In this document: positions 1-21,103 of the stretch, one piece after another
Layout: every line of letters begins with the position of its first letter
How positions within the stretch are numbered: position 1 is the first letter of the stretch
IMG/VR virus record: IMGVR_UViG_2541047790_000014
Coordinates: 1-29,346 of that record
Source of the DNA: a virus
Taxonomy: Duplodnaviria; Heunggongvirae; Uroviricota; Caudoviricetes
Strand: one strand, 5' to 3'
DNA length: 29,346 nucleotides
The notes under the pieces: generated by a model
Database searches by the model: none
Seen by the model: the letters and a program-made list of their open reading frames with translations, nothing else
Told to the model about the DNA's origin: nothing
Program-made: the position numbers and the translations under genes

Positions 1-1173
1 TCAGGCCTTATGGTGGAAATAATCACTCAGGCGGGAAAACATGCTGCCTTCCCCGACAGATTCCAGGGTAACCAGCGGCCAGTGCGCCACCTGTTTATCA
101 CGGTCGTAAAGTTCAATTTCCCCTACCCGCTGATGGGCGCTAATTGGCGCGGTGAGTTCTTTACCATCAAGGGTATATTTGGCTTTGATATGTGGAATTT
201 CGGCTTTCGGTAGCACCATCCAGAACTCTTGTTCCGTTCCCAGGGCGATATTTTCTTTATCACCATACCAGATGCGTTCCGTACCGACCTTTTTCCCACG
301 GTGCAAAATTTGCACCGTAGTAAAGTTTTGTTGCCCCCAACGCAGTAATTTTCTTGCCTCTTCCTCACGACCTTTTGCGCTGTCAGCCCCCATTACCACT
401 GCAATGAGGCGACGCTGCCCGTCTACAGCCGAAGCAATAAGATTAAACCCGGCACCAGAAGTATGGCCCGTTTTCAGGCCGTCAACATTCATGGTTTTAT
501 CCCACAATAACCCGTTACGGTTTTGCTGGGTGATACCGTTCCAGGTGAGGCTTTTCTCACTGTACATATGATAAAACTCGGGCTCGCCGTGGATGATAGC
601 GCGAGAAAGCACGGCTAAATCATAAGCCGAGCTATGCTGGCCAGGTGCATCCAGACCATGCACTGTTTCAAAATGCGTATCCTTGAGATGCAGCTTCTCG
701 GCATAGTTGTTCATCATTTCAACAAACTGCCGTTGCCCACCGGCAATATAGTCAGCCAGAGCAACACAAGCGTCATTTCCGGAATCCACAATTAAACCAC
801 GGCTTAAATCACGTACCGATACGCGATCGCCCTCTTTCAAAAACATCAGTGAAGAACCGACAAACACCGGATTATCTTTCGCCCACGCATCGCGCCCCAC
901 GGTGACAATATCGTCTGGCGTAATGCGATGACTATCGATAGCGCGATCCACGACATAGCCCGTCATCAGCTTTGTCAGGCTGGCGGGATTGCGCTGTTGA
1001 TGCTCATTACCCGCGGTGAGAATCTGACCGGTGGTGTAATCCATCAATACCCAGGACCCGGCATGAATCTCTGGAGGCTGAGGTGAAAAAGGAATGTTTT
1101 CCGCCGCAAAACCAGACGATAAATTAAAAACGAACAAAGAAGCAGCAATAATAAGACGGCGTTTCAACAGCAA
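1..1173 (-). CDS. dacD: D-alanyl-D-alanine carboxypeptidase, class C low-molecular-weight PBP (PBP6b-like)
   Basis: Complete 390-aa ORF with signal peptide and the three serine-PBP motifs (SLTK, SGND, KTGH). Gene identity as dacD is from memory of the E. coli protein and the divergent sbcB-like start 202 bp upstream. Confidence 0.8.
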   Translation of the reverse strand: MLLKRRLIIAASLFVFNLSSGFAAENIPFSPQPPEIHAGSWVLMDYTTGQILTAGNEHQQRNPASLTKLMTGYVVDRAIDSHRITPDDIVTVGRDAWAKDNPVFVGSSLMFLKEGDRVSVRDLSRGLIVDSGNDACVALADYIAGGQRQFVEMMNNYAEKLHLKDTHFETVHGLDAPGQHSSAYDLAVLSRAIIHGEPEFYHMYSEKSLTWNGITQQNRNGLLWDKTMNVDGLKTGHTSGAGFNLIASAVDGQRRLIAVVMGADSAKGREEEARKLLRWGQQNFTTVQILHRGKKVGTERIWYGDKENIALGTEQEFWMVLPKAEIPHIKAKYTLDGKELTAPISAHQRVGEIELYDRDKQVAHWPLVTLESVGEGSMFSRLSDYFHHKA

Positions 1174-1499: not shown

Positions 1500-1958
1500 C
1501 ATCGCAATTTTCACATCACCGGGCAGTCATAAAACTCACCATAACGCTCTTCGTTGATGATGTACGTGATCACCAAAAATATCGCATCCGGACTAGTTCC
1601 ATCTTCATGCGTAGGTATCTGTTCATGCCTACCTGTCTGCAAATCCTAAAGATGAGATTTTAGAGTTTTGGGATATCTTTTTATCCTCAGTTCTCTATCC
1701 ATTCTGCAAACCAGTAACGAACCATCACCGTGTGATAGTGAGGCATCCGCTACGTTAAGCGCAGAGAAATGATGCAGTGGTGGGCGGATTGGATTGATGA
1801 AAAGGTGGTGTGACCCGCCTTAACAACTATCGAATATCACAAAACCTTGCAATCCAGTGCAAAGCTTTGTGTGCAAGAATATTTTCTCACCAACATCATG
1901 ACAACATTATTCTCTTAGTTAATTACATCGAAAAATCATACATAACCATATTAATTAA

Positions 1959-1985
1959 CAATCTGCGCCTTTTCGACGCAGATTT
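1959..1985. terminator. Putative terminator hairpin downstream of the tailspike gene
   Basis: Perfect 7-bp inverted repeat ATCTGCG / CGCAGAT with a 9-nt loop, flanked by AT-rich sequence, just past the tailspike stop at 2007. Confidence 0.35.
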
Positions 1986-2006
1986 CATATTGTTTTATGT
2001 TGAATA

Positions 2007-4394
2007 TCATATTTTATTTAAGTTATTCTTTTTTAATGTCATCTCTAGTTCTTCGATACGTCTTTCTATATTATCAATTCTCTCCCAGCATTGCTGAATT
2101 GATTTAACAATAGGTGGGATAAACTCATCGTAACCGAGTGAGTAAACATCATCCCCACCATTTTTCAAGTGATGCTGTAGCCCACCGAACTCAACACCTA
2201 ATTTTTCACACAGTTTCAATACGTCCTGTGCAATAAACCAGTGATGGTATCGTTGACGTTTTTTACTGCCGTCAGGAGTTTTCTGCACTACTTCAAGATA
2301 TTTTTCTTCGACATTCTCAATAGCTGATATAGTAATTCCATCAACATCTCGTTCTACTTTTTTTGGTACAATTCTTGTCTTTTCAATAACATCAATATAA
2401 TCATCACGCATATCCCAGCGACCATCGACAGGACGAAGCCCAAGGATAAATTCAATCCCCAGCAAAGTATCTCGGATATCTGTTTTATCACGCGCATCAG
2501 ATCTGTTTTGCACAGTTCCATATACATACGTCGTTGTGGAAGAATTGCCAAGCTGCACCTGATTACTTCCAGACACTCTTGCATCATTGCCAACAGTTGT
2601 TGTGTTGGTAAGTGATGATGTGCTTTCCCCTGATTGAGTTAATCTACCTGAATTATGTCCAATAGCCGTGTTTAATGCGCCGGTTGTATTTGTGACAAGA
2701 GAGCCAGACCCAATTGCAACGTTACTGCTTCCCGATGTTGTTCCTTTTAATGCCTGCTGTCCAACCGCAACATTATTATCACCCGTTGCTGCTATAAGTG
2801 CCATGTGACCAATAGAAACGGTAAATGAACCTAGCGTTTGAGTTTCACCGCATGCACCATAACCAATTACAACAACATTATCTGTAATTGTTGACTCGGT
2901 TGCCGCTCCAGCACCAATAACAACGCTTTCATTCCCGGCAAGATTCTTGCGCATTGCGAACATTCCAATGCCAACATTATCATGCCCAGTCCCTGTACCT
3001 GCTGCCTCCGCAGCACCAAGACAGTTTCCCGCTCTGTAGCCAACCATGGTGTTATTTGAACCAATAGAGAAGTCTCCGGCAAAAGAGCCTACGTATACAC
3101 TATTAGACTGTGAGTAATCTCCAGGATTTCCATTCGCCCGATATCCTACTGCAACTGTATAAATAGTATCTGGAGCCTCAGCCATGGCCTCAAAGCCAAC
3201 TCCAACGTTATATCTACCGCCCTTAACTTTTTCTCCTGCACCAAGTCCGAAGAATGAGTTATAGCTCCCGGTTGTTAGCCACTCGCCAGCAACAGAACCT
3301 ACAGCAGTGTTTCCTGTTCCAGTACATCGATACAAAGTCAGGAAGCCAACTCCGGTATTATTATTTCCTGAAATATTACTCATCAATGATTTTGACCCAA
3401 TGGCAGTATTGTTAACACCATCGGTCAGATCCTGTAACGCTCGCGGGCCAAATGCTGTATTATCGTAACCCTTTGGCGCTGTTGTTGGATCTGGTAACTC
3501 CGGGGTTAGTTTTTCACCACCGCCACCATTGGCACAAAGATTGTAAGATCGAATAAATTCAGCCACTGGCCCAAGTTTTAAATAACCATTGGCAATATTA
3601 ATTCTGACACTTACATTAACTGAGCTACCAGGAGCTTCTATTGTCCTGTCATCAACCCAGGTAAAACTCTGTGGTATCCCGTCATAAGTTAATGTCACAT
3701 CTCCTTTATCATTATAATTATAGAACAATGTATAACGCTCATTTATAGATTCAGAACCTGATGATCCTCCTCTCCTCCACCACTCTGCATTATCAAAAAT
3801 AAGTAATCCTGGACCATAATATTTTCCCTTCTGACCCAAGATCATAGGAGTCGATAATCGCCACCTTCCCTCTGGAACATATACATCGATCCCAGTTCTT
3901 TCTGCGTCTTTAAACGATTCATCACATAATAAAACACCACCTTCAACAGCACCAAATCCACGAACATCACCATTATCTCTCCATCGAGCCATTTGCAACT
4001 CAGGATACTTCTTAGCGCCATCAATGTCTTCTAATTGGTCCCGCAGCTGATCAGGATCATACTTCAGTACATTAGGAAAATAGAACTGCTGAGCACCGTA
4101 AGCATCATATACAGCCATAGAATGGCCTTGCACAGTTACGAACTTGGCAATCTGTCCGTTATATACAGGGTAACCAGCAGCGTTAAGGATGATTGGTTGT
4201 GAAACAGGAATGTGAGAACCATCTTCACTCTCTACATAAACCTGAATCTGGTTTTCAGGATTTACCGGGTCAGTGTCAATTTTACCGATATAAATTTTGC
4301 CATTAGCTACGGCTTTAAAAGAGCGAGCCATAGTGAAGAGTTGCGATGGCATCCCAATTACAACATTTGGGGTTATATTAGGCATATTAGTCAT
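2007..4394 (-). CDS. Tailspike protein: P22-gp9-like head-binding N-terminal domain, repeat-rich receptor-binding domain, C-terminal intramolecular chaperone (peptidase S74-like)
   Basis: N-terminal stretch [25 protein letters not shown]...[13 protein letters not shown]...LKYDPDQ closely resembles the P22 tailspike head-binding domain. The centre has many NTAIG/NVGVG-type repeats. The C-terminus has the Ser-Lys dyad context SDARDK typical of self-cleaving fibre chaperone domains. Start placed at MTNMPN (4394); the ORF extends to 4478 but that extension lacks an RBS. Confidence 0.85.
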
Positions 4395-4730
4395 CCTGTT
4401 TGAAAACTTAGAAATTGAATAAAAAGGAATGACTGTAGACAAAGATGCAAGTGTTTTGAAAAATAATCTTCTATCCATTTTAAATCATGCAACACAAACA
4501 AAACGATTATTTTACAACGTGCACGAATCTTGATCAACAGGCATATATTTTAATTGCTGAATACGTCACTTAAAAATGACAAGTACTACTTTTATTCCTA
4601 TCGTCCATGATTTTAATTTTCAAATATTATTAAATAACAATTCCTATTTATAATATCTGTCATTTAATTTGCTCCAGATACAAGTAATCGCTGCAGCATG
4701 ACTGCAGTGATACATAATCAATCATACAAC

Positions 4731-4747
4731 AAGACCACCGTGGTCTT
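4731..4747. promoter_or_regulatory. Mnt-operator-like palindrome AAGACCACCGTGGTCTT
   Basis: Perfect 17-bp palindrome about 60 bp upstream of mnt, resembling the symmetric P22 mnt operator (GGTCCACGGTGGACC-type, from memory). A GATAAT -10-like hexamer lies about 20 bp downstream. Confidence 0.5.
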
Positions 4748-4809
4748 ATTGAGGATGCAACCAGCAGATAATAAGATGCCGATCCACTCACAAGAGCGAG
4801 GCATCAAGA

Positions 4810-5061
4810 ATGGGAAGAGATGACCCGCAATTTAATCTGCGGCTACCTTACGAATTAAAGGAAAAACTAAAACAGCGAGCCAAATCCAATGGCCGCTCTC
4901 TTAATTCAGAATTAGTTCAGATAGTGACTGATGCTGTATCAAAGCCATCCAAAATTTCAGGCTATCGAGACGATGCGGAACGCATCGCTGATGAGCAGTC
5001 CGAACTTGTTAAGAAGATGGTGTTTGATACGCTGAAGGATTTGTACAAAAAAACCACCTGA
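4810..5061 (+). CDS. mnt: Mnt repressor (ribbon-helix-helix, Arc/MetJ family)
   Basis: 83-aa protein MGRDDPQFNLRLPYELKEKLKQRAKSNGRSLNSELVQIV...ELVKKMVFDTLKDLYKKTT is near-identical to my recollection of P22 Mnt. RBS GAGG 8 nt upstream. Confidence 0.9.
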   Translation: MGRDDPQFNLRLPYELKEKLKQRAKSNGRSLNSELVQIVTDAVSKPSKISGYRDDAERIADEQSELVKKMVFDTLKDLYKKTT

Positions 5062-5078
5062 CGGTGGGTTAATTTTTG
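5051..5078 (+). terminator. Rho-independent terminator at the end of mnt
   Basis: Hairpin AACCACC-TGAC-GGTGGGTT followed by TTAATTTTTG. The mnt stop codon lies in the loop. Confidence 0.5.
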
Positions 5079-5080
5079 CA

Positions 5081-5125
5081 TTTACCTGGGCCATATTGAC
5101 TACTTATAAAATGAGATCAATATTT
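5081..5125 (+). promoter_or_regulatory. Putative sigma70 promoter for the downstream small gene
   Basis: TTGACT (5096-5101), 17-bp spacer, AATATT; an overlapping alternative is TTTACC-N18-TATAAA. About 40 bp upstream of the RBS of the 5161 gene. Confidence 0.35.
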
Positions 5126-5160
5126 AATCGCCCAATAACGGGTGTATGTTGAGGTATATC

Positions 5161-5406
5161 ATGGCGAAAAAACCAGGTGAAAACACAGGAAAAACGGCGG
5201 AATATACCAAGAGGTTGGCCCACGCGGCGGTAAGAAAGACAATTTTGCCACCGTCAAGGACAACGAAAGGCTTCCGCCAACAACAAAGCCAGGTCATGGC
5301 TGGGTATTGGATAAGCGAACTCCAGACAGCAAAAAGTAATACTCAAGCCGGGTCACTCCGGCTTTTTGATATGTCGCTCGCAGAACTCAACAAGCCTGCT
5401 CATTAA
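5161..5406 (+). CDS. Hypothetical small basic protein (accessory locus, sieA-equivalent position)
   Basis: 81-aa ORF starting MAKKPGENTGK with RBS GAGG at 5151-5154 and a promoter-like sequence upstream. The track ORF starts earlier at 5146 without an RBS. No recognisable family. Confidence 0.4.
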   Translation: MAKKPGENTGKTAEYTKRLAHAAVRKTILPPSRTTKGFRQQQSQVMAGYWISELQTAKSNTQAGSLRLFDMSLAELNKPAH

Positions 5407-5718
5407 GTAGCAGTAAGTCTCGTTGGCTCTTCCTGGTTCAACATCAACGCCGACCCTTGAGCAGATATCGAATGCCATGTGAGCGCACTCATGGGCAATA
5501 GTAGATAGTTTGCCATTGAACACGCCTATCACATGCAAAACACCATTCTCGCTGCTCATTGTATGAGACGCTCCGTTGGCGTCCGAGTCATGCACGTCAA
5601 CGCCAAGTTTTTGATGCAGGCGTTGCCATTCTGGAAAGTCTCTACAAAACACAATTGTACCGCTCTCAAAGAGCGGAACGAGCATCTTTGGTACGTTTCC
5701 AATGTTAACTTTTTTCAT
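5353..5718 (-). CDS. Hypothetical protein with HExxH motif (possible small zinc metallopeptidase-like protein)
   Basis: 121-aa ORF from MKKVNIGNV, containing HECAH. The longer track ORF (start 5871) has no RBS. The 3' end overlaps the convergent 5161 gene by 54 bp. Family not recognised. Confidence 0.4.
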   Translation of the reverse strand: MKKVNIGNVPKMLVPLFESGTIVFCRDFPEWQRLHQKLGVDVHDSDANGASHTMSSENGVLHVIGVFNGKLSTIAHECAHMAFDICSRVGVDVEPGRANETYCYLMSRLVEFCERHIKKPE

Positions 5719-5755: not shown

Positions 5756-6085
5756 GTGCTTGAATGGTTTCTGTTGGCTGCATTAGTCGTTTCTGGTTGG
5801 GTGTATGAGTATCGAATGCACTCTCTAACAAAAAAAATAGGAATTCTAGAAAACGAATATTGGGCTCTCAAATCCTCACTGGAACGTGAGCAAGGAGACT
5901 TAAAAATCTATCTGTCTAGCATTGAGCGTTCTATAGAGAGCCTAGAGGATAAAGTTAATCGTATAAAGAATGAGGATATTCATGATATTAAGGACGATAT
6001 ATCCTTCTTAAAATCTTGGTTGAAAAATGTTGGTAAAATTGCCACATCAACACGAGATAAGCTCAATCCATCCATGGATGATTAA
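5756..6085 (+). CDS. Hypothetical membrane-anchored coiled-coil protein
   Basis: GTG start with GGAGG 5 nt upstream. N-terminal hydrophobic helix (FLLAALVVSGWVY) then a charged heptad-like region (LENEYWALKSSLEREQGDLKIYLSSIERSIESLEDKVNRIK). DNA is AT-rich relative to the flanking structural genes. Confidence 0.5.
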   Translation: MLEWFLLAALVVSGWVYEYRMHSLTKKIGILENEYWALKSSLEREQGDLKIYLSSIERSIESLEDKVNRIKNEDIHDIKDDISFLKSWLKNVGKIATSTRDKLNPSMDD

Positions 6086-8254
6086 TTACTCCTGTGCTAT
6101 TCCGCTTAGCGATGCCACAATTCCAGCCCTTGCTAAACGCTGGAAATCTTCGTTTCCTAGTGCATCGCGTATTGCTTTTACGGCGGCCTTATTTGCCATA
6201 AATCTGCGTTCAGCCGCCGCTAATGCGCCATCACTTGCCCCAACCTTAACTGCCTTTGTTGCCTCTTGAACAGCCTTTTCAATAGCGTAACGACCGCTTC
6301 TGGTTGCGGATAATTTCGCTATCGATCCTTTTGCTATTGCATCAATTGCTCCACCTGCAGCGCCACCCACTATTGCTCCAATAACACCACCTCCAGAGAA
6401 CCCTGCGATAGCGCCAGCGGTTGGAAAAGCGCCAGACAATACGCTCTCTAAAACTGGATGAAGGCCCTTCTCAAGAGTGCTAATGGCTGGCATAGAGCGC
6501 CCTGTCTGTTCAACATATCGAAGTGGCTTTGTTGCTGCTCGTGCAAGTTCTCCGTATGAACTTGTAATCCTGCCAAGTTCTGGAGAATATCGACTAATTG
6601 CCTTCACGTTTTGTGGGGTAAGAATAGTCGCGATATGCTTAATTCCAGCCCCTTCAGACTTACCTCCGCGCATCCCTTGCGATACCGTATCTTGCAATAT
6701 TGATGCAATTGCTGGCGCGCGTTCAGACTCAGGTAGGGCGCTTATTATTTTATGAAACTGACCTGTTCCACTTTTTGCTGAGCCCTGTAACGCCTTAGAG
6801 CCATTAGTTACCAACTGATCAGTTGCAAGGTCTCTACCAAACGCTGCTTCAGCCTGTTCTTGTGCTGTAAATCTTGCCTTTGACAGATCATTAGCTTTTT
6901 GCCAGTCATCAAGAAAACCGCCATTTTGAGCCATTATGCGCATATCTTCCGTTGCTGCATCACGAAGCTCAGCCATGCGCCTTGCCGTATTTGCCTCACC
7001 AGACCTTATATACTTCTGCTCAGCGTCAGCAAGTTTACTTCGCCATGCCTTCATGGCATCAAACGTGATTCCATTTTTACCAGTTTTAGCATAAGCAGAT
7101 GCGAATTGTTTCATCTCAGGAGTTAGCGGCATGCCAGCCAAAATATCACCCTGAATTGTAGCGTTCAGGTTTAACATTCTGGCCTTTGCGTCAGGCATCG
7201 TGGAGCGGACGCTATCCCATGCGGCCTTTTCTGAATTTTTCATTTTATCAATACTTGCCAAAACCCTTTGTTTTATGGCTGCACTTTTTTCTGATGCAGT
7301 TCCTGCTTCAGCCCCAAACTCATCCAATGCTGAGTTAAATTTCGACTCTATTTCACTGAATGCTTTGGTGTGTGCATCCTGTGTAATTCCGGGCTTTGAC
7401 GCCAGAATCCCCTCCGCCTGAGCAAGACCACGACTACCTGATCTCATGCCAGGAGTTAATGCGTTGATATCTATTCCAGCGGTATCTGCTGCTTTTGCTA
7501 TTTCGTCTGACACGTTAGCTGACTGTCTGGCAATAATCTCTCTTCCTGTACCAGACTTTGCCATTTTCGAAACATCAGCAGCGGAATTTATTGCCCCGCC
7601 ACCAAGAACTTGAGGTGATTTAGAGGTTAAGAGCCTTCCAGCCCCAGAAAGTATCCCCTGAGCACCAATATTGATACCACCGTTAATGGCAGCATTTTGT
7701 GCAAAGTCGCCCTCCTGATTTGCAGCATCAGCAAGAGAACCTGCAATCATGTTTCCTGCGGAACCGATATCTCCAGCGAGCTTTGCTGGCGCTCCAGCAG
7801 CTTTTGCCGCTGTGCCAATTGGCAGGAGATACCCACCAATTGTTTCACCGGCTTGCGCGTAAGGGTCTGTCGGTCGATCGACAGGGCGATAAACATCATC
7901 CAAAACCTTTGGGCCACCAAGCCCCTGGCTGATTGCATTAATCAGACTTGCGCCACCCTGTAACACGTCAAATGGTATGTTTACCAGACCACGACCAGCC
8001 TGTTCTGCAATTTGCCCTGCACTTTGACCACCAGTGAGCCAATCGCCAGCTTGTTGCATCAATGATGGTTCTTCTTTCTGCTGCTGAGGCGGAGGGTATG
8101 CTGCATAAAACTGATCTCTTGCTTCAGCCCATTTGTCACCAGCCTTAGGGGCAACAACCTCATCAAAATATTGCGCTTGAGCCTGTGCTTTCTGTTCTTC
8201 AGTTAACGCCTGATACTGTGGAGAAGCGATAACGTCTTTCCATGCTTTAGCCAT
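6086..8254 (-). CDS. Ejection (internal virion) protein, P22 gp16-like
   Basis: 722-aa Ala/Gly-rich protein at the position of P22 gene 16, immediately after the gp20-like gene with an ATGA start/stop overlap. Assigned by synteny and composition. Confidence 0.7.
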
Positions 8255-9603
8255 TAATCACCCCATAAAGACGAGAAACCGGACTTATTGCTGTCGCTTC
8301 CTGATTTTCGCTCACTAACATATGTGTCATAACCTGATGAACTGTATCCCATTGATTCAGCCTCCCTTGCTGCAACCTTTTGAAATACAGAATATTGAGA
8401 TCGTATTTCAGATAACTGTTTTCTGACGACCTCTTCAGGCTGTGTTATATCGAGTTTCGCGATCAGGTTTTCCAGTTTTTGGCCTTCAGCATTGGAGAGG
8501 CTACCCATACCTCGCATAGTCTGCACGTTCTGGACAAACGCACCCGACTTTAATTCTTCTATCGCATTACGGTTTGCAAGCCCTTCAGCACTTGTGAAGC
8601 CATCTATATTTCTTCCTTCGAAGCGACCGATACCTTCAAGCTCCTTCTTACCAAGCAAAGAATCAATTTTCTCTATCCCTCGCTCACCAGTAATCAACGC
8701 ATTGTTGTAATTATTGTTGCCATCAAGCCATCTCTTAGCCTGAGACATTCTGGCTGACGTTGCAGCTTTACCGGTTAGCGGATCAATTCCCGTCGCTGCT
8801 ATCTGTGAGTTAAGAGACAAAACATCCATATCCTGAAGTTGTCCTGCTCTTTCAAGGGCCGCCTGTGACTGCTTAAACACATACTTGTCGTGATTCAGTC
8901 TTGCCATTTGAGCCTTATAGGAAAGATCCTGCCCCCTAATAGCCCTCGCATTCGTCATGTCATTATTGCGAATGGTTTCGTTAATTCTTTGCTGCTCCTG
9001 CTGGCGACCAACCATCTTATCCTGAACAGCAAACGCCTTTTCTGGTCCAAGCGCACCGAGAGACATAGTAGTCAGCATGTGTGATAGCTGCTCGGGATTC
9101 TGGATACCTGTCTGAATCATCCAGTCAGCATTAGCACCCACGCGATTTAACCTGTCCTTGTTGTCAGTAATGAATTTACTGTAGGCTTCCGGTCCCTGAG
9201 AAAGAGCGACGTTAGCCCTCATGGCTAAATCGCCCATATCGTTGCGTTGCTGCTCATTAAGACCGGAAAACGCCTGTTGTGCCTGTGCAACAAACGCTGG
9301 ATTTTCCTGGGCAAACTTAAATAGTCCCGATGGATCACCAGAAGCCCATGCATCAGCGTGAACCTTATTGAACGCACTAATAGCTTTCTGTTGCTGTTCC
9401 TGCTTATAAATATCAGCAACTCCAGCCAGACCACGTAACGCGGTCAGACCAACGTTATTTGCACCTGAGCGAGCCAGTTCATTGTTTTCGCGGATCAGAC
9501 CAAGCGTTGCGTTAATGTCGCTTGCCTTTGGCGCATTCTCGTTTTGCGCGCCAATGCCAGCCAAAAAACCACCAGAATTAATACCCTGTTGCCACGTAGC
9601 CAT
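8254..9603 (-). CDS. Ejection protein, P22 gp20-like
   Basis: 449-aa protein in the gp7-gp20-gp16 syntenic block. Assigned by order and size. Confidence 0.7.
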
Positions 9604-9613
9604 TGATTACCCC

Positions 9614-10306
9614 TTAAAACAACGAGCCAAGCAGACCAAGACCAGCACCGATACCAGCACCCCACGGAGTTGATAGCTCGAGAGCACTGGCTATGCCACC
9701 ACCCAAAAGCGCACCGGATGCAGCACCACTAACCCCCTGCTGCAATGCTGACGGTCGGTTGGCGTTTGCCGCAGCCAGCGCCGCGCTTTGCTGTGAAATC
9801 TGACTCATGTTGTTGGCATATGTTTGCCCGGCGTTTGCCTGCCCCTGAAGAGCGCCAAGACCGATATTTGCCAGGTTGTTGTAATTGTTCATTTGTCCAG
9901 ATAGCCATTGCTGACCAAGCGTTGGTGCGATTGTTGCTAACTGATTACTGGTTGCGGTGGAACCCAATCCACCTGTTGCTTCCGCTGCCGCCAGACTCTG
10001 ATAGCGAGCCTGACCTGCAAGGTCTTTATACTGCTGAGAGTTGTAATACTGGTTAAGTGCCTGACCTTGCCCCTCCAGAGACGATAAGTTCTCGAGGCTG
10101 CCGACATACTTCTCAGCCAGAGGAGTAAACGGCTTCAGGTTATTCATGATGGTGTTGAACTGCTGATTTTGCAGGTCTGCGGCATACTTCTGAGCTTCTG
10201 CTGCATACTTTGCGCTTTTATCAGAACTGCCACCTTTACCGCCTTTTTCAGGGCAATAAGGTTCCTCGCCGCGCAGTTTTCTGCCCAGCTTAAATGCATA
10301 TAACAT
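9614..10306 (-). CDS. Ejection protein, P22 gp7-like
   Basis: 230-aa protein with Gln/Asn/Ala-rich centre and Gly-rich hydrophobic C-terminus, at the gene 7 position. Confidence 0.7.
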   Translation of the reverse strand: MLYAFKLGRKLRGEEPYCPEKGGKGGSSDKSAKYAAEAQKYAADLQNQQFNTIMNNLKPFTPLAEKYVGSLENLSSLEGQGQALNQYYNSQQYKDLAGQARYQSLAAAEATGGLGSTATSNQLATIAPTLGQQWLSGQMNNYNNLANIGLGALQGQANAGQTYANNMSQISQQSAALAAANANRPSALQQGVSGAASGALLGGGIASALELSTPWGAGIGAGLGLLGSLF

Positions 10307-20617: not shown

Positions 20618-21103
20618 TTATTTCAGTTCGTTACCAGGCATTTCTTTTAGCTCTTTCAAATGACAACGATTGAGGCTAAACCACTCCCCGTGCGACCTAT
20701 AGTTGTAATATTTTTGGTGCAATTTGGTTTCAAGCTCTCTATCGGACGGAATCTTTGCAATTAGATTTAGCTTCCCACCACTCATGCGAGATATCTCTGA
20801 AATTCGTTTATTAACCCTGCGACTAAACCCTATTTTTGTTAGCCCACTATCTTCAGCATGCAGAACGTACACATATGATTTTTGCGAAGCACTGGGTGCG
20901 ACTTTGTTGTAATTAATCATGTCAAACATGAAGCCTTGCTTTAGCAAAGTTTCAAAAAAGATAGAATTAACACACCCATTCCTTCTCAGCTCTGCACTTA
21001 GCTTGTCAATTTCCTCTATGATGTCGCCAGACCCCTTTCCACTTATAAGAAAATCTTGGTACATGCGACCAATTCTTGAGGTAATTTCAACAAAGTTATT
21101 CAT
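20618..21103 (-). CDS. T5orf172 (GIY-YIG-like) domain protein, accessory gene
   Basis: 161-aa protein whose C-terminal half (YVYVLHAEDSGLTKIGFSRRVNKRISEIS...LETKLHQKYYNYRSHGEWFSL) matches the T5orf172/MUG113 pattern (YVYVL, KIG, R, E..LH, GEWF). AT-rich, weak RBS, set between a terminator and the terminase operon. Confidence 0.65.
   Translation of the reverse strand: MNNFVEITSRIGRMYQDFLISGKGSGDIIEEIDKLSAELRRNGCVNSIFFETLLKQGFMFDMINYNKVAPSASQKSYVYVLHAEDSGLTKIGFSRRVNKRISEISRMSGGKLNLIAKIPSDRELETKLHQKYYNYRSHGEWFSLNRCHLKELKEMPGNELK

Follow-up and report, generated by a model that had tools for sequence, protein, structure and literature searches.

The window analysed here is a 29,346-nucleotide stretch of viral DNA (positions 1 to 29,346 of IMG/VR virus record IMGVR_UViG_2541047790_000014). 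It carries an orphan copy of mnt, a repressor gene known from the immI region of phage P22, beside a tailspike gene. A first-pass annotation had described an orphan mnt with an operator palindrome and without arc and ant. Our analysis confirmed that description and supplied an anatomy and a history for it: sequence comparison shows mnt as a stand-alone repressor gene with its own predicted promoter (P_mnt) and a predicted cognate operator. The same comparisons show the orphan as the remnant of a P22-type immI, from which arc, sar, ant, and a working ant promoter (P_ant) were lost in an ancestor shared with phages L/ST64T, SE1, ST160, and Gally. The elements concerned are as follows, in window coordinates.

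4810-5061, plus strand: mnt, encoding an 83-residue ribbon-helix-helix repressor with a C-terminal tetramerisation domain; Shine-Dalgarno (SD) sequence GAGG at 4798-4801.

4731-4747, strand not applicable: predicted O_mnt-type operator, AAGACCAC-C-GTGGTCTT, an 8+1+8 dyad.

4749-4777, plus strand: predicted P_mnt, with -35 TTGAGG (4749-4754), a 17-nt spacer, and -10 TAAGAT (4772-4777); start predicted near 4784.

4754-4782, minus strand: decayed remnant of P_ant, TCGGCA-17-TGCATC where P22 has TTGACA-17-TATATT.

5054-5067, both strands: bidirectional intrinsic terminator, CCACCTGACGGTGG, with T-runs on both strands.

2007-4385, minus strand: tailspike gene with a P22-type head-binding domain (Pfam Head_binding, E = 1.1e-63); the ATG at 4385 is the start called by PGAP (Prokaryotic Genome Annotation Pipeline), with the SD sequence AGGA 8 nt upstream.

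The gene had been called almost P22-like, and this held: the window Mnt was 77.1% identical to P22 Mnt and both Mnt domains were present. Identity was 98.8% with the Mnt of phage Gally and 91.6% with that of SE1. The N-terminal ribbon-helix-helix matched Pfam Arc (PF03869) over residues 3-50 (E = 2.8e-22) and PDB entry 1MNT (E = 2.6e-34), and the C-terminal tetramerisation coiled coil matched Repressor_Mnt (PF11423) over residues 53-80 (E = 2.2e-18) and 1QEY (E = 5.9e-13, 29 of 31 residues identical). The β-strand contact residues of Mnt, in P22 numbering, are reportedly Arg2, His6, Asn8, and Arg10, from work by Knight and Sauer. In the alignment, the window protein retained Arg2, Asn8, and Arg10 and carried Gln in place of the His6 of P22. 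Downstream, the bidirectional terminator closes mnt on the plus strand; on the minus strand it meets late-operon transcription arriving from the ejection-protein side before this becomes antisense to mnt. We also observed that several RefSeq phage records, and PHROG 795 as well, label Mnt a "partition protein ATPase", a propagating annotation error.

The perfect 17-bp palindrome that had been placed about 60 bp upstream of mnt was recovered as AAGACCACCGTGGTCTT at 4731-4747, 62 nt before the ATG; it is perfect in the sense of two 8-nt arms around one unpaired central base. Perfect 8/1/8 palindromes are not rare per se in the window, which has four of them against 0.375 expected from shuffles, the other three lying at 300, 13407, and 16123. 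The site is therefore read as an operator because of its position and comparative pattern, not because of palindrome rarity. It aligned column for column with the O_mnt of P22 (AGGTCCACCGTGGACCT), and the gap between operator and P_mnt -35 was 1 bp in both. Seventy related loci, picked by protein similarity, supplied 32 unique upstream sequences in which conservation was assessed. The arm positions 4733-4738 (GACCAC) and 4740-4745 (GTGGTC) were invariant or nearly so, while the centre at 4739 varied (C in 11, A in 9, G in 5, and T in 7), as did the left flank. Fixed arms with a free centre are the signature of a dyad operator whose centre is not contacted. Across the whole prophage to which the window belongs, this was the sole such site at up to two mismatches, with 0.05 expected. 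P_mnt scored 11.8 with a position weight matrix (PWM), within the top 20 of the window, and was invariant or nearly so across relatives; the P22 P_mnt, TTGAGA-17-TATCAT, has the same geometry and scored 14.4.

Next to this conserved operator and promoter, the rest of immI was missing. Positions 4300-5200 matched 15 complete Escherichia coli chromosomes at 100% and a sixteenth at 99.9%, for example ZH063 and the O25:H4 strain CU568-3. In ZH063, the window is part of a 40-kb P22-like (Lederbergvirus-type) prophage flanked by dacD and sbcB, whose late operon runs on the minus strand through head genes, ejection proteins, and a small variable region, with the tailspike last. The spacer between mnt and the tailspike is 424 bp long when counted to the tailspike start of PGAP (4385) and 415 bp when counted to an ATG at 4394, and its open reading frames (ORFs) gave zero matches to PHROGs. 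A check for arc and ant remnants against P22 immI had been suggested for this spacer. We extended it to the whole prophage (L006) by tblastn with P22 Arc, four Ant/antirepressor types, KilA, and Rha, and recovered nothing beyond Mnt itself; intact arc or ant was found nowhere in the 40 kb. Ten unnamed prophage proteins that were tested had no Pfam domain. Relocation of ant within the prophage was considered and rejected, as the prophage gave no antirepressor match and these ten proteins no Pfam domain. For sar, there was no Rfam match at E ≤ 1, with a P22 positive control of 97.8 bits, and the Rfam search of 4200-5500 returned no family. The absence of arc and ant between mnt and the tailspike was thus borne out by the PHROGs, tblastn, Pfam, and Rfam searches.

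DNA homology to P22 in this region was confined to 4810-5200 (mnt and downstream) and 4653-4710, and the Arc operator was not conserved in the alignment of the window with P22. The PWM score of P_ant was 16.8 in P22, 4.2 in phage L (TCGGCA-17-TATATC), and lower, at an unlisted value, in the window. Judged by sequence, P_ant is decayed in every orphan. In addition, a PWM scan found no conserved minus-strand promoter over the operator, the best candidate scoring 7.25 and not being conserved.

That the spacer is not empty had escaped the first-pass annotation. It contains the following elements.

4653-4712, minus strand: P22-type gene 9 5' untranslated region (5'UTR), with a hairpin, an SD sequence, and a vestigial start; 86% identical to P22 up to and into gene 9.

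4613-4663, minus strand: 16-codon ORF from the vestigial gene 9 start, MTDIINRNCYLIIFEN and stop; found in all leader copies, with a length that depends on the stop codon.

4386-4656, minus strand: AT-rich leader of 275-285 bp, from the old gene 9 start to the present tailspike start.

4509-4537, minus strand: sigma-70 promoter-like site, TTGATC-17-TAAAAT (score 14.0), inside the leader and pointing at the tailspike.

4386-4478, minus strand: in-frame upstream extension of the tailspike, with an ATG at 4478 and 31 residues followed by MPNITPNVV; similar to a signal peptide of the twin-arginine or Sec type.

The hairpin of the gene 9 5'UTR is CTGCAG-CATGA-CTGCAG at 4691-4707, and its pairing has been kept through compensatory changes among P22, SE1, Gally, and the window. 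The SD sequence is the reverse complement of CTCC at 4672-4675, and the vestigial gene 9 ATG is at 4663-4661 (ATGACAGATATTAT). Phage JEP4 also has the AT-rich leader, as do 44 of 5,426 complete E. coli genomes. The leader was found 3' of ant (E4, MS 16-3, and MLI121) and beside orphan mnt (A3, MSHS 472, and ET729), and its occurrence next to both indicates that it is part of the tailspike module and not of immI. That the leader might descend from the ant region was considered and rejected, since it is unchanged in ant+ and ant- prophages and follows the tailspike head-binding variant. Besides the 5'UTR hairpin, RNAalifold and minimum free energy analyses found no significant RNA structure in the leader (z = -1.26). 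The hexamers of the promoter-like site were invariant among aligned copies, and the differences were confined to its spacer.

These features bear on the first-pass proposal that Mnt regulates transcription entering the tailspike gene. In the form of promoter repression, the proposal is disfavoured because P_ant has decayed in every orphan, leaving no promoter there for Mnt to repress, and it is further weakened by the varying distance to the tailspike. What stands of it is an effect on late transcripts, in which bound Mnt as a roadblock, or convergent transcription from P_mnt as interference, would tune late read-through into the tailspike as a cis control of dosage. Late transcription does run through the operator, which in all orphans precedes the conserved hairpin of the gene 9 5'UTR by 13-24 nt, and a conserved cis site needs a cis function. 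Villafane et al. 2008 (PMC2629481) consider an influence of the P22 ant moron on late read-through to the tailspike possible, with Mnt and Arc perhaps participating. Yet the operator-tailspike distance ranges from 135 to 431 bp, the vestigial start, the short ORF, and a separate promoter-like site intervene in the window, and a Q-modified polymerase would probably pass the operator. We regard such tuning as possible, though rather doubtful.

The orphan state is a property of a lineage. All 64 IMG/VR loci with an Mnt at least 90% identical to that of the window were without arc and ant, and ant was present in all 16 loci with a 77-78% identical P22-type Mnt. The mnt-tailspike distance was 135-148 bp in most relatives and 419-431 bp where the leader is present, as in the window. 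One 976-bp spacer (L040) was examined as a possible new module and rejected, being due to an IS1 insertion in the tailspike gene. The segment from the operator to the gene 9 hairpin was homologous in SE1, Gally, and the window; the shared lineage and the homologous junction indicate a single ancestral loss.

Within the Mnt family, the recognition strand and the operator half-site covaried across four specificity classes.

MARDDPHFNFRM, half-site GGTCCAC: P22, epsilon34, UPF_BP1, and E. coli ant+ prophages.

M[GA]RDDPQFNLR[LM], half-site AGACCAC: the window, L, SE1, and Gally; ant-linked copies too.

MSREDPQFKLRL, half-site GAACCAC: E. coli CH4794, ant+.

MYSKYDEAQFHLRL, half-site ATACCG-AAA-CGGTA: JEP4, Sf101, and MSHS 472.

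By these sequences, the lineage of the window is a distinct specificity class, with Gln6 and GACCAC half-sites against the His6 and GTCCAC of P22. The change from His6 to Gln alongside an altered half-site fits a specificity variant and not a loss of function. From the covariation and from background knowledge on Mnt, we infer that residue 6 reads the changed operator base. The specificity of Arc and Mnt is set by N-terminal residues (Knight and Sauer 1989, as cited in PMC3413123). Two ant-bearing arrangements stand out. The GAACCAC class was seen in E. coli CH4794 (L331, 700-800), where an immI with arc and ant has an Mnt beginning MSREDPQFKLRL (Gln6, Lys8) and the operator TGAACCAC-C-GTGGTTCA. 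Four loci (L081, L082, L084, and L085) represent a further variant not described before: their Mnt is P22-type (His6), O_mnt is missing from its usual upstream place, arc is absent, and ant is present in a divergent form (57% identical).

Comparison of mnt with Salmonella SE1-type orphan genes gave dS (synonymous divergence) of 0.41-0.48 and dN (nonsynonymous divergence) of 0.043-0.054, or dN/dS of 0.09-0.12. Pooled pN/pS, the corresponding polymorphism ratio, was 0.21 over 26 unique mnt sequences and was alike in both domains. The ORF was intact in 62 of the 64 loci of at least 90% identity. Thus, on sequence evidence, mnt is under purifying selection, with dN/dS of about 0.1. This result bears on the view that Mnt is non-functional, or a self-perpetuating leftover of a degrading immI that regulates itself only, a possibility raised for phage L by Zaworski et al. 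2021 (PMC8022706). Among about 70 loci there were indeed two truncated copies of mnt, one of them also with a mutated operator, and five single-base operator variants, and the prophage holds no target besides Mnt's own site. A dN/dS of about 0.1 sustained over a dS of about 0.45, operator arms that stay invariant around a free centre, and persistence of the module over E. coli and Salmonella phages with differing tailspikes and neighbour genes all count against mere decay, and we consider this explanation unlikely.

Continued purifying selection without a local target would also be compatible with recruitment of Mnt, by way of related half-sites, to a target beyond the prophage, for instance a host gene or a different prophage; Zaworski et al. 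(PMC8022706) propose "another function" for the phage L gene. No candidate site is known, and the module travels between hosts with the phage, so that recruitment of this kind appears improbable and stands last in our ranking, below the self-perpetuating remnant, the tuning of late read-through, and, in first place, trans immunity.

The explanation that we tentatively place first is that Mnt is a functional, self-regulated repressor kept for trans immunity against the ant of phages of the same operator class. In a lysogen, Mnt would be made constitutively from P_mnt, with no competition from P_ant. The tetramer, formed through the conserved C-terminal domain, would bind the 8-1-8 operator abutting the -35 of P_mnt, and this binding probably sets Mnt's own level by autoregulation. 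In trans, Mnt would silence the ant promoter of incoming or co-resident phages with the same operator class (Gln6 Mnt and GACCAC half-sites), and silencing of ant would shield the prophage's CI/C2-type repressor from a foreign antirepressor. Susskind and Botstein are said to have found that prophage Mnt represses the ant of superinfecting P22 and that P22 Ant inactivates heterologous lambdoid repressors. The purifying selection on mnt also implies a pay-off beyond self-regulation.

Trans immunity calls for ant-bearing phages with the same operator, and these were found among viral contigs. The operator sequence AATAAGACCACNGTGGTCT was carried by 75 viral contigs, of which 60 were orphans beside a tailspike, 5 were JEP4-like, and 6 had a full mnt-arc-ant region; another (L225) had mnt and arc at the contig end. 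The six full regions were as follows.

IMG/VR loci L096, L149, L160, L220, L232, and L233: full immI with an AGACCAC operator, on ES18/SPN3UB-like siphovirus contigs.

These contigs share with the window an identical operator, the flanking TTATTGA, and a Gln6 Mnt (MARDDPQFNLRM). Unlike the window, they possess arc and ant, a good P_ant (TTGACA-17-CATCAT, score 12.7), a different virion type, and an Mnt that is 58-67% identical and has a longer C-terminus. One of the six, L160, an ES18/SPN3UB-like siphovirus, was 82% identical to the Salmonella siphoviruses S107 and SPN3UB. UPF_BP1, N7, and SPN3UB were themselves rejected as cognate ant+ phages, their operators being P22-type or unrelated, and an operator-pattern match in a Rhodoferax metagenome-assembled genome was taken as chance, with no mnt there.

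In JEP4 (L004, 3680-6935), genes resembling the KilA and Rha antirepressors come after the orphan mnt on the side away from the tailspike, along with a divergent C2-like repressor; this looks like a different secondary-immunity module adjoining orphan mnt. Five contigs (L200, L222, L228, L236, and L238) were grouped with JEP4 by KilA/Rha or Ant-like matches at most 2.5 kb from the operator, not by gene order.

Several observations weigh against trans immunity. Among the 5,426 complete E. coli genomes, no cognate (AGACCAC) ant-bearing region was found. Where the mnt-arc intergenic region of an E. coli prophage immI was fully read (L009, L331, and L332), the operator is GGTCCAC or GAACCAC, and the partly read regions of L007 and L012 likewise carry GGTCCAC. 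Unless the repressor cross-reacts, there may therefore be little selection for it in E. coli. A purely trans role also leaves the conservation of the operator in cis unexplained, and autoregulation must be assumed. Recombination with ant-bearing relatives could inflate dN/dS; none with an Mnt at least 90% identical was seen. The suggestion in the first-pass annotation of immunity against incoming ant-carrying phages is plausible, with cognate full immI regions in six viral contigs on one side and none found in the complete E. coli genomes on the other.

The upstream extension of the tailspike is a separate matter. It occurs in three divergent variants (V1 to V3; loci L248-L270 and L329).

V1, M[DN]RRLFFKT[LI]ASLS...: the window and JEP4.

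V2, MNRRSFFKSIASFVALTP...: includes Escherichia albertii, where the long form is called by PGAP.

V3, MKRRTLLKSLLGLTSLLPVKFAASQNLQGKSIM: CurroJimenez (Bas106), Huey, Dewey, Louie, and APC_JM3.2.

In Bas106, the deposited coding sequence begins at the upstream ATG. All three variants keep the pattern M-x-RR-x-hydrophobic-hydrophobic-K (DRRLFFK, NRRSFFK, and KRRTLLK), a weakly hydrophobic stretch with proline (best 12-residue hydropathy 1.4-1.7), and S-x-S or A-A-S before a short linker. At the motif level, the extension would thus pass for a twin-arginine translocation (Tat) signal. The canonical tailspike Met retains its own SD sequence in the extension-bearing variants. V1 and V2 were 64% identical in DNA, with differences of 11/6/18 by codon position, a pN/pS of 0.45, and a sole open frame. 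Among nine V3 copies, the 99-nt extension had 8 variable sites (1/0/7 by codon position), all synonymous, against 11 changed codons in the next 50 head-binding codons of the same copies. The first 18 residues of V2 were invariant. By eye, V1 to V3 each have a GTTGAT element resembling a -35, placed at -58 to -60 relative to the upstream ATG. In the promoter scan, V1 scored 14.0 (TTGATC-17-TAAAAT), V3 10.9 (TTGATA-17-CATGAT), and V2 8.45, where the scan chose a neighbouring TGGAGT at -62.

Against an expressed extension, the upstream ATG has no SD sequence, and V1 on its own is weakly constrained. The four variants tested also had no match to TAT_signal profiles of Pfam and NCBIfam at E ≤ 10, a search in which HMMER filters may drop short weak matches. 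On balance, the pattern of variation suggests that a long tailspike isoform is probably translated from the upstream ATG; that it is exported and takes part in remodelling the surface is hypothetical. As a speculative extension, less probable than the translation itself, the spacer could be a second tailspike expression module. In this scheme, the promoter at 4537-4509 (minus strand) and the ATG at 4478 would yield a long isoform with a twin-arginine or Sec signal, whose export to the periplasm, by the prophage or late in infection, would let it trim host O-antigen or capsule, while the short isoform would build virions.

A partial parallel is WceF of Pantoea stewartii, a tailspike-fold trimer behind a Tat signal peptide that acts on the bacterium's own polysaccharide and affects the chain length of exopolysaccharide (PMC7949094). 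In both, a tailspike-type protein follows a Tat-like signal peptide, a predicted one in the window. WceF is chromosomal, lies in an exopolysaccharide cluster, and has a single start, whereas the extension in the window is optional and the virion tailspike gene keeps its canonical start and SD sequence. The searched text of papers on the V3 phages does not mention the extension. If true, such a module would represent a novel form of lysogenic conversion, of superinfection exclusion, or of receptor-destroying activity, and an unrecognised prophage means of remodelling the host surface; it would be testable in cultivable E. coli K-12 phages and could outweigh the main finding.

The surroundings of mnt in the window were also examined. 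dacD occupies window positions 1-1167 by Pfam search, and no tRNA gene was found in the window. Between the tailspike and the dacD end of the prophage (1174-2006), there are no gtr-type O-antigen conversion genes, unlike P22 and L; the region holds just one 95-residue ORF (1810-2097, plus strand), which has no Pfam match. The tailspike gave a weak, sub-threshold match to Peptidase_S74, a C-terminal chaperone (E = 0.0012, 19.5 bits against a 22-bit cut-off), with no stretch passing alone. The ejection proteins lie upstream in the late operon.

9614-10306, 8254-9603, and 6086-8254, minus strand: ejection proteins of the late operon.

Three small genes make up the rest of the "ant moron", none with a Pfam match. 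The first (5162-5406, plus strand) is an unannotated 81-residue ORF where P22 has orf59a, with homology limited to the first ~40 nt. The second (5353-5718, minus strand) encodes a 121-residue protein with an HExxH motif (AHECAHM) and belongs to PHROG 1365, of unknown function. The third (5756-6085, plus strand) encodes a 109-residue protein of PHROG 5962, also of unknown function; epsilon34 has an hkcB homologue at that position. Farther along, a GIY-YIG nuclease gene called by PGAP (20618-21103, minus strand) lies between the lysis genes and DUF2560/terminase-region genes and could have arisen by insertion of a homing endonuclease into the late region.

Finally, the region was compared with known systems. 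It resembles P22 immI in the family of its repressor, with both domains and 77% identity, in the 17-bp 8-1-8 operator 1 bp from the P_mnt -35, and in the place of mnt between gene 16 and gene 9, oriented opposite to the late operon. It differs from P22 immI in lacking arc, sar, and ant, in the decay of P_ant and O_arc, and in Gln6 for His6 and AGACCAC for GGTCCAC. The mnt-only arrangement is already published and is not new. Villafane et al. 2008 (PMC2629481) call the region from gene 16 to the tailspike the "ant moron" and give the mnt-only layout in ST64T/ST104. Zaworski et al. 2021 (PMC8022706) give the layout in phage L and ask whether mnt there has another function or is a degrading remnant. 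In the deposited genomes of SE1, ST160, Gally, and vB_EcoP-720R6, mnt is directly beside the tailspike. The window belongs with these mnt-only morons: its operator is AGACCAC-type, and mnt is all that it has of the immI genes from the gene 16 homologue to the tailspike. As in ST64T/ST104, L, SE1, ST160, Gally, and vB_EcoP-720R6, mnt adjoins the tailspike at the same junction, and the N-terminal DNA-binding sequence MGRDDPQFNLRLPYELKEK and the AGACCAC-N-GTGGTCT operator are shared with them. The window Mnt has a P22-like C-terminal domain, whereas that of L differs, and the 275-285-bp AT-rich leader and different neighbour genes set the window apart from the other mnt-only phages.

The impact of the main finding is modest, as it adds a further mnt-only immI remnant, in clinical O25:H4-type E. 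coli. What it adds is evidence that the remnant has long been kept under selection as a module whose operator specificity is its own, which makes the published question of function or remnant testable.

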